From Promethearchaeota archaeon (GTDB taxonomy: Archaea; Asgardarchaeota; Lokiarchaeia; Sigyniarchaeales; SOKP01): a DNA stretch of 64,000 bases. This document shows, one piece after another, positions 17,492-25,859 of the stretch. Location: positions 32,224-96,223 of the forward strand of contig JAEOTR010000079.1 of the NCBI GenBank assembly GCA_016839705.1, in the 5' to 3' direction. Below the pieces are notes generated by a model. That model saw nothing but the letters and a program-made list of their open reading frames with translations. It had not been told where the DNA came from and made no database searches. The stretch's first letter is position 1. Each line of letters opens with the position of its first letter. The position numbers were made by a program, and so were the translations under genes.

Positions 17492-17770
17492 GGAGATTTA
17501 AGAAGTCTTGAATCTTAATATACTTCCCTTTAGAAAAAATAATTAGTGGTGCATTTCTAAATTAGGAAATCTTTAAGAAACCGCGGATAAATGAAAAAAA
17601 AATTTTAAATGAGATTTCTTCCCCTTGAATTTGTACTTTTTATCCCTTTTCTCACTTTTTATGTTCTCATTTAAGGACTAAAAATATTTTTATGAGATTC
17701 TTTACTTTAATTTCTATCTTATTTATGATAATAAATTGTATATTATCAAAAAATAAGATATTTCATAGGT

Positions 17771-17972
17771 GCCAAGGTGGCGTAGCCCGGTTCATCGCGT
17801 TAGAGCTCCTTATTGTAGGGTAAGAACGCACCAGATTCATCGGAGTTACCGATAAAGGTGAAACTGAAGATCTGGGTATCGAGAAAAAATTGGGTCTCTT
17901 CGACCGTTTTCGGGAAGGTTCAAAAGAAAAACCCGCATTCGAGCTTTTTGGGAACTCCCTCCCTTGGCACCA
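17771..17972 (+). tRNA. tRNA-Phe(GAA) with four non-canonical introns, CCA encoded
   Basis: Removing 17791-17823, 17835-17862, 17884-17916 and 17925-17955 gives a fully paired 77-nt cloverleaf GCCAAGG TG GCGT AGCCCGGGA ACGC A CCAGA CTGAAGA TCTGG GTATC GAGGG TTCAAAT CCCTC CCTTGGC A CCA. Each junction forms a BHB-like motif. Confidence 0.88.
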
Positions 17973-18124
17973 CTCTTAAGATTTATTATTGATTATTTAT
18001 ATCCCTCTTCTTCTTAAAATTAGATTCTAGCTCTTTTACTACTCCTTTACCATATATATTTAATTTCCCAAATCCTTTCCTTTTGTCCGTTAATGCTTTT
18101 TCAATTGCTTTTATAATTGTATTA

Positions 18125-25752: not shown

Positions 25753-25859
25753 TGGCGCGGCTAGCGGGATTTTCTAAAAAGCTCGAAGGGAACTTTCTTT
25801 TGAACCCGCGTCGCAGGAGTGACAGTCCCGAATGCTAGACCGGGCTACACTATAGCCGC
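25753..25859 (-). tRNA. tRNA-Asp(GTC) with a 29-nt intron at 59/60, CCA encoded
   Basis: GCGGCTA/TAGCCGC acceptor; CGGGA-CTGTCAC-TCCTG; removing 25770-25798 restores GCGGG-TTCAAAT-CCCGC. Confidence 0.92.

Follow-up and report, generated by a model that had tools for sequence, protein, structure and literature searches.

The window (the whole 64,000-nucleotide stretch of DNA that was analysed) most likely carries, at positions 17771-17972 of the + strand, a functional tRNA-Phe(GAA) gene that is the only one in the assembly of the source genome (G000) and that is predicted to be spliced by the endonuclease EndA and the ligase RtcB. We put the probability of this reading at roughly 0.86. In the proposed route, the gene would be transcribed as a precursor of ~200 nt holding four short introns. 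Each intron, together with the exon bases just upstream, would then form a relaxed bulge-helix-bulge (BHB) motif, with a central helix of 3-4 bp, two 3-nt bulges that contain the cut sites and a hairpin internal to the intron. An (alpha-beta)2 splicing endonuclease, whose catalytic subunit has the Crenarchaea-specific (L1) loop that confers a broad substrate range, would cut in the bulges, and RtcB would ligate the exons into a tRNA body of 74 nt followed by the encoded CCA. We infer from the sequence that cleavage and ligation occur and that all four sites can be processed independently, in any order.

Anatomy of a tRNA-Phe gene in five exons

Window 17650-18100 was read and cut at the predicted boundaries, which gave exons of 20, 11, 21, 8 and 17 nt and introns of 33, 28, 33 and 31 nt. 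These lengths and the coordinates below agree exactly with those proposed in an earlier, sequence-only reading of the same DNA.

tRNA-Phe(GAA) gene: window 17771-17972, + strand, 202 nt, five exons and four introns
Exon 1: 17771..17790, + strand, 20 nt; acceptor 5' strand, U8, D-stem 5' strand and most of the D-loop
Intron 1: 17791..17823, + strand, 33 nt, in the D-loop; central helix GCCC/GGGT, bulges GG|T and AA|G
Exon 2: 17824..17834, + strand, 11 nt; G20-A21, D-stem 3' strand, nucleotide 26 and anticodon-stem 27-30
Intron 2: 17835..17862, + strand, 28 nt, at 30/31; CACC/GGTG, bulges AG|A and AA|A, inner hairpin ATCGG/CCGAT
Exon 3: 17863..17883, + strand, 21 nt; position 31, anticodon loop CUGAAGA (GAA), anticodon-stem 3' strand, variable loop and T-stem 49-51
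Intron 3: 17884..17916, + strand, 33 nt, at 51/52 in the T-stem; (A)TCG/CGG(G), bulges AG|A and AA|G, inner helix AAAA/TTTT plus GGTC/GACC
Exon 4: 17917..17924, + strand, 8 nt, GGTTCAAA; T-stem 52-53 and T-loop 54-59
Intron 4: 17925..17955, + strand, 31 nt, at 59/60 in the T-loop; TTC(A)/(G)GGA, bulges AA|A and AC|T, inner helix GAAAA/TTTTT
Exon 5: 17956..17972, + strand, 17 nt; position 60, T-stem 3' strand, acceptor 3' strand, A73 and CCA at 17970-17972

ARAGORN accepted the spliced 77-mer as tRNA-Phe(gaa), with all four stems paired (7-bp acceptor, 4-bp D, 5-bp anticodon and 5-bp T), anticodon loop CUGAAGA, T-loop TTCAAAT, discriminator A and a CCA encoded in the gene. The invariant nucleotides U8, A14, G18-G19, U33, G53-T54-T55-C56, A58 and C61 are all present. 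Identity of tRNA-Phe resides in G20, G34, A35, A36 and A73, and the spliced product has the anticodon GAA, G20 as the first base of exon 2, and A73. The introns sit in the D-loop (after the 20th nucleotide, ~Sprinzl 19/20) and at 30/31, 51/52 and 59/60, with 37/38 empty, a distribution that matches the sites named at the outset by the sequence-only reading. G+C content is 60% for the spliced tRNA, 39-45% for its introns and 30% for the window. Two other kinds of interrupted gene were ruled out. A split or permuted tRNA gene is at odds with five exons that are colinear within 202 nt. Group I and group II introns have a ribozyme core of hundreds of nucleotides, whereas these introns measure 28-33 nt and the region has no Rfam hit.

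Given the unspliced window DNA, both ARAGORN and the Rfam tRNA model (Infernal, RF00005) returned only a tRNA-Gly; that standard scanners would overlook the gene had been predicted, and these two do. It had also been asked whether the genome has another tRNA-Phe. None was found in the source assembly (93% complete, 97 contigs), either among 31 ARAGORN genes with introns allowed, some of which are clearly mis-parsed, or among 24 Rfam genes, and a scan for a contiguous GAA anticodon arm gave 21 matches, none in a tRNA context. Standard annotation would thus call this genome tRNA-Phe-less, which matters for quality checks of metagenome-assembled genomes and for inference from codon usage.

The same problem probably extends to other tRNA genes. 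Only 12 tRNA genes of the source genome are uninterrupted, and neither ARAGORN nor Rfam detected a tRNA for Asn, Cys, Gln, His or Trp. Because these five are undetected, many further multi-intron tRNA genes are probably hidden in the assembly. Spliced alignment with the compact tRNAs of two relatives recovered only the genes for Asp, SeC and Arg-TCT and part of the one for Ser-GCT. Among these, the tRNA-Sec gene (G000:C87:137429-137554, - strand) carries a 33-nt D-arm insertion relative to the compact copy in G001. GC-rich islands were tried as a marker of hidden tRNA genes and dropped, as the 1,197 islands in the genome are far too unspecific.

Splicing motifs, folding energetics and enzymes

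A BHB motif (hBHBh') consists of two 3-nt bulges, which contain the splice sites, on either side of a 4-bp helix, and a relaxed form lacks an outer helix. We set the register by pairing two 4-nt segments, one ending two bases before the 3' end of the exon and the other two bases before the 3' end of the intron. The four central helices that had been proposed were found in this canonical register:

Intron 1 central helix: GCCC/GGGT, 4/4 pairs, one of them G-U
Intron 2 central helix: CACC/GGTG, 4/4 pairs
Intron 3 central helix: ATCG/CGGG, 3/4 pairs plus an A-G mismatch
Intron 4 central helix: TTCA/GGGA, 3/4 pairs plus an A-G mismatch

After each of these helices comes the 3-nt bulge in which the splice site lies. 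Inner helices are present, with the hairpin of intron 1 weak in the source genome, and the outer helix of intron 4 is the T-stem. Because the outer exon-exon helices are weak or absent, these are relaxed (HBh'-like) BHB motifs. The weak outer helices and the 3/4 central pairs of introns 3 and 4 are among the features that speak against our preferred explanation.

The motif holds well beyond this one gene. Over 159 orthologous introns from the same family, the central helix in exact register has 4/4 pairs in 121 and 3/4 in 35 (at least 3/4 in 156/159). A combined test, requiring at least 3 of 4 pairs in the central helix H and at least 2 pairs in the inner helix h', was passed by 109/159 at the true boundaries vs 0-9/159 when both boundaries were slid by 4-9 nt; these counts come from kin genomes and so overstate independent support.

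Several unrelated hairpin sequences fill this one geometry across the kin genomes. Aligning each intron class with MAFFT and folding it with RNAalifold yielded the BHB directly for intron 2 and did not recover it for introns 1, 3 and 4, whose variable hairpins aligned poorly. Owing to these poor alignments, we adopted pair counts anchored at the splice sites, which reveal compensatory changes in both H and h'. At the intron 1 site, there are 46 distinct sequences, and the H pairs are kept in 43-46/46 and the first h' pair in 44/46, with several pair types. For intron 2, pair H4, beside the 5' bulge, varies among C-G, U-G and U-A, while pairing at h' positions 5-8 persists in 24-28 of the 27-30 distinct sequences through 4-5 pair types. 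The inner helices of introns 3 and 4 co-vary in the same manner. Pairs H2-H4 of intron 3 are kept in 17/17 distinct orthologous introns, and its outermost pair in 5/17 only.

Thermodynamic folding of the source gene presents a different picture. None of the four BHB helices appears in the RNAfold minimum free energy (MFE) structure of the 202-nt precursor, nor in those of the individual introns folded with their flanking sequence. All four cores can coexist sterically in one structure, which lies 33 kcal/mol above the MFE. In the modelled ensemble, presenting one core costs 4-10 kcal/mol across all 15 orders tested, and this cost shifts by at most ~3 kcal/mol whichever other introns have already been removed. 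As a control, six single-intron tRNA genes from this genome whose boundaries are clean gave costs of 2-11 kcal/mol, a noisy comparison due to imprecise ARAGORN intron calls. Since the controls gave similar costs, we dropped MFE folding as a discriminator. Under this model, the energetics are uninformative rather than contrary to BHB splicing, and they give no sign of an obligatory order.

Whether the introns leave in a fixed order is the question on which the best-surviving alternative turns. It assumes the same gene and the same enzymes, with some motifs becoming cleavable only after other introns have left and the RNA has refolded; intron 4, for example, would require the full T-stem, which forms only once intron 3 is gone. 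That stem serves intron 4 as its outer helix, and exon 4 contributes only 2 bp to it as long as intron 3 is in place. Intron 3 may also have an outer helix of its own (h run of 5), which would overlap the central helix of intron 4, and the precursor MFE displays none of the motifs. Against such an order, the four H/h' cores nest without conflict, and the presentation costs given above hardly depend on it. The relatives also bear many different subsets of the four introns, which implies that each intron can be handled without the others present. We therefore consider a fixed order improbable, and the ordered splicing once raised as a possibility is left unsupported.

Processing at all four sites, as in our preferred reading, would call for a splicing endonuclease and a ligase. 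Both are encoded in the source genome:

EndA alpha subunit: G000:C56:35901-36491, 197 aa, both Pfam domains, the only EndA gene found in G000
RtcB ligase: G000 C25:19832-21139

The best solved relative of this EndA is the catalytic alpha subunit of the (alpha-beta)2 enzyme from A. pernix (3P1Z_B, E = 1e-34), which aligns end to end and without a gap through the Crenarchaea-specific loop (CSL). In the A. pernix enzyme, K44/R46 belong to the loop and Y125/H133/K164 form the triad (Hirata 2011, PMC3241643). Counted from the alignment, K55/R57, Y138/H146/K177 and R170/W194 of the source EndA correspond to A. pernix K44/R46, Y125/H133/K164 and R157/W183. Asgard archaea have been reported to possess (alpha-beta)2 EndA with an L1 loop, and the loop has been linked to cleavage of relaxed motifs (Kaneta 2018). 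The expectation of an endonuclease with relaxed specificity is thus plausible: the source EndA is a crenarchaeal-type alpha subunit with the CSL Lys and Arg (PMC3241643, PMC5829648).

A second EndA paralogue of ~205 aa occurs in 36/40 high-quality genomes of the family (e.g. L194:431-1045, - strand). It is 34% identical to alpha, is closest to M. jannaschii EndA and has Ser in place of the catalytic His; on the basis of this substitution, it is a putative beta-like subunit, structural and non-catalytic. When the source assembly (93% complete) was searched for a second subunit, the three queries used, namely Pfam PF01974 (E = 10), the alpha protein and the beta protein of a relative, returned the alpha gene alone, and this absence counts against the preferred explanation.

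Orthologues, possible intron loss and a shared T-loop intron family

We mapped tRNA-Phe in 69 genomes of the same Promethearchaeota family by spliced alignment. When the locus was compared by BLAST with 40 relatives, the matching pieces abutted exactly at the predicted intron positions. Across the 69 orthologues, 3 genes have no intron, 15 have one, 22 have two, 16 have three and 13 have four. The sequence-only reading had regarded the gene as an extreme case and had proposed a survey of Asgard tRNA-Phe genes for intron number. Carried out for this one family, the survey returned 0 to 4 introns, and with the four-intron form present in 13/69 genomes the label of an extreme case is not supported. 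The 13 four-intron genomes fall in five genera (g1, g14, g19, g20 and g23). Of 12 genera, 10 have an intron at the D-loop site, 9 at 30/31, 8 in the T-loop and 7 in the T-stem; the intron 1 site is filled in 48/69 orthologues.

Relatives that lack introns define the junctions directly. The gene is uninterrupted in three genomes of the same genus (G001, G085 and G086), with every junction matched. In genomes without one, two or three of the introns, the flanking exons are joined precisely at the predicted junctions; exon 1, for instance, runs directly into exon 2 in orthologues free of intron 1 (e.g. L004, L009, L011 and L014). The presence of an uninterrupted gene within the genus thus fixes all four junctions. 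The G001 gene (L014) differs from the spliced source product at four positions only, which make up two compensatory T-stem pair changes, A50-U64 to G-C and G52-C62 to A-U.

These comparisons bear on a second alternative, in which the boundaries of intron 3 or 4 differ, for example with the T-loop intron a few bases upstream, and the mature T-arm is slightly different. Each of these introns has one mismatched central pair, the A-run around intron 4 permits other cuts that keep a 7-nt T-loop (TTCAACT), and some relatives have a different intron family at 58/59. However, only the boundaries listed above reproduce the TTCAAAT loop of the uninterrupted orthologues, and only they, with one equivalent boundary each, place each of the two cuts two bases 3' from a helix of 3-4 bp. 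We regard shifted boundaries as very unlikely.

In the other four-intron genes, identity to the source gene is 95-100% in the exons, with exon 4 and its 8 nt identical, and 52-93% in the introns. Conserved exons with diverging introns are the signature to be expected of a working gene with fast-evolving introns. The remaining alternative, a decaying, insertion-riddled pseudogene whose working counterpart lies in the unassembled 7% of the genome, gains some room from the fragmented assembly and from the two tRNA-Phe copies of a relative (G004), but is the least probable of the three, given the exon identity maintained across genera, the compensatory nature of the T-stem changes, the retention of the four-intron gene in 13 genomes of five genera, the position of every insertion at a BHB-register boundary, and the single tRNA-Phe match per genome that a pattern search gave in most relatives.

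A T-stem variant, GGGAG/CTCCC, is common to the uninterrupted alleles (G001, G085 and G086; L014, L050 and L051) and to two-intron alleles (G079 and G088; L043 and L052), and this fits stepwise, precise intron loss within one genus. As the same four sites recur in many genera and the uninterrupted alleles are nested inside one genus, precise loss, and not gain alone, may shape these tRNA genes. The resulting series of orthologues with 0 to 4 introns at fixed sites constitutes a natural experiment on how Asgard EndA recognises BHB motifs and how introns are gained and lost.

Further variation was seen among the relatives. In some genomes, a different T-loop intron family (GGGATTCGCC...GGATTCC) at 58/59, one base upstream, replaces the 59/60 family (loci L004, L007, L009, L011, L044, L047, L054 and L076), which looks like intron replacement or sliding between neighbouring sites. 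G004 has two tRNA-Phe genes (L015 and L045) that differ in their introns, and in one of them a D-arm intron lies at another position; with an estimated contamination of 9%, the two copies may represent two strains.

The T-loop intron also has a counterpart in a second gene of the window, located by spliced alignment with a relative's compact tRNA-Asp:

tRNA-Asp(GTC) gene: window 25753-25859, - strand, one 29-nt intron at 59/60 (~25782-25810), CCA encoded

ARAGORN reads its spliced product as tRNA-Asp(gtc), and the unspliced gene was undetected by ARAGORN and Rfam. CCA is encoded by both the tRNA-Phe and the tRNA-Asp gene of the source genome and is absent from most of the relatives' tRNA-Phe genes shown. 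The Asp intron has an identity of 0.74 to intron 4 of the source tRNA-Phe and 0.87 to that of G014, and the Asp intron of G089 is 0.97 identical to the G014 Phe intron 4 (loci L012 and L198). Against the other three Phe intron classes, the best identity of the Asp T-loop intron is 0.59-0.73. For the relatives' tRNA-Asp, we used the T-loop introns alone, as acceptor stems differ from the reference and make intron counts unreliable at the gene ends. In the source genome, the intron 4 family was found in tRNA-Phe and tRNA-Asp only, BLAST matches of the four Phe introns being otherwise at chance level. The two tRNA genes are syntenic, ~8-20 kb apart, in many relatives.

This likeness suggests copying or gene conversion between similar T-arms, and we give even odds to the tRNA-Phe T-loop intron belonging to a family that is copied between different tRNA genes. 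The 2026 Asgard census left the spread of introns open and reported almost no sharing between tRNA genes in its focal lineages (10.64898/2026.10.13.758758). The Phe/Asp family is a concrete lead on intron spread, and active copying or gene conversion between T-arms, if true, would give direct evidence of the way in which tRNA introns spread in Asgard archaea.

Comparison with known multi-intron tRNA genes

Heavily interrupted Asgard tRNA genes are already on record. Introns occur in 92-95% of the tRNA genes of Atabeyarchaeia and Freyarchaeia (Valentin-Alvarado 2024, PMC11291895), and Supplementary Data 4 of that paper contains four-intron genes for Freyarchaeia Arg-TCT, Ile2-CAT and Leu-GAG and for Atabeyarchaeia-2 Trp-CCA. 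A 2026 preprint (Goswami, 10.64898/2026.10.13.758758) gives 2.2 intervening sequences per gene in Atabeyarchaeia/Freyarchaeia families, with up to five in one, and reports that 30% are missed by tRNAscan-SE; Lokiarchaeia and Promethearchaeia are unnamed in its main text. The usual limit of three introns given in the sequence-only reading is accordingly exceeded in both sources. For these reasons the novelty of the present gene is limited, and the known picture of archaeal tRNA splicing is unchanged by it. What it adds is that heavy tRNA interruption, with four introns and an 8-nt exon, reaches a Loki-type Asgard family and is conserved there in at least five genera.

The features in common with the tRNA genes of Atabeyarchaeia and Freyarchaeia/Jordiarchaeia are short BHB-type introns at non-canonical sites in the D-arm, anticodon stem and T-arm, several introns per gene, oversight by standard annotators, and pairs of EndA paralogues, seen here in the relatives. 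The host differs, being a Promethearchaeota (Loki-type) family in which the four-intron form is common to five genera. In addition, the source tRNA-Phe has four introns whereas the Atabeyarchaeia tRNA-Phe genes listed have three, and it shares a closely similar intron with another tRNA gene, which was almost never seen in the focal lineages of the 2026 preprint.

Among Thermoproteales, tRNA genes have, according to reviews, at most three introns per gene. The source gene differs from those of these hyperthermophilic TACK archaea in having four introns and in residing in an AT-rich (30% GC) Asgard genome. It resembles them (Sugahara 2008 and Fujishima 2010, as cited in other papers) in its non-canonical BHB introns, in a predicted (alpha-beta)2 EndA with a Crenarchaea-specific loop, and in intron families that extend across tRNA genes. 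The nearest biochemical parallel is the pre-tRNA-Thr of A. pernix, which likewise has a BHB intron in the D-loop and whose cleavage by APE-EndA relies on the lysine in the CSL of the enzyme's catalytic alpha subunit (Hirata 2011, PMC3241643). That case comprises a single intron and was shown biochemically, in contrast to the four introns predicted here from the sequence, and the source EndA keeps both the CSL and its two basic residues.
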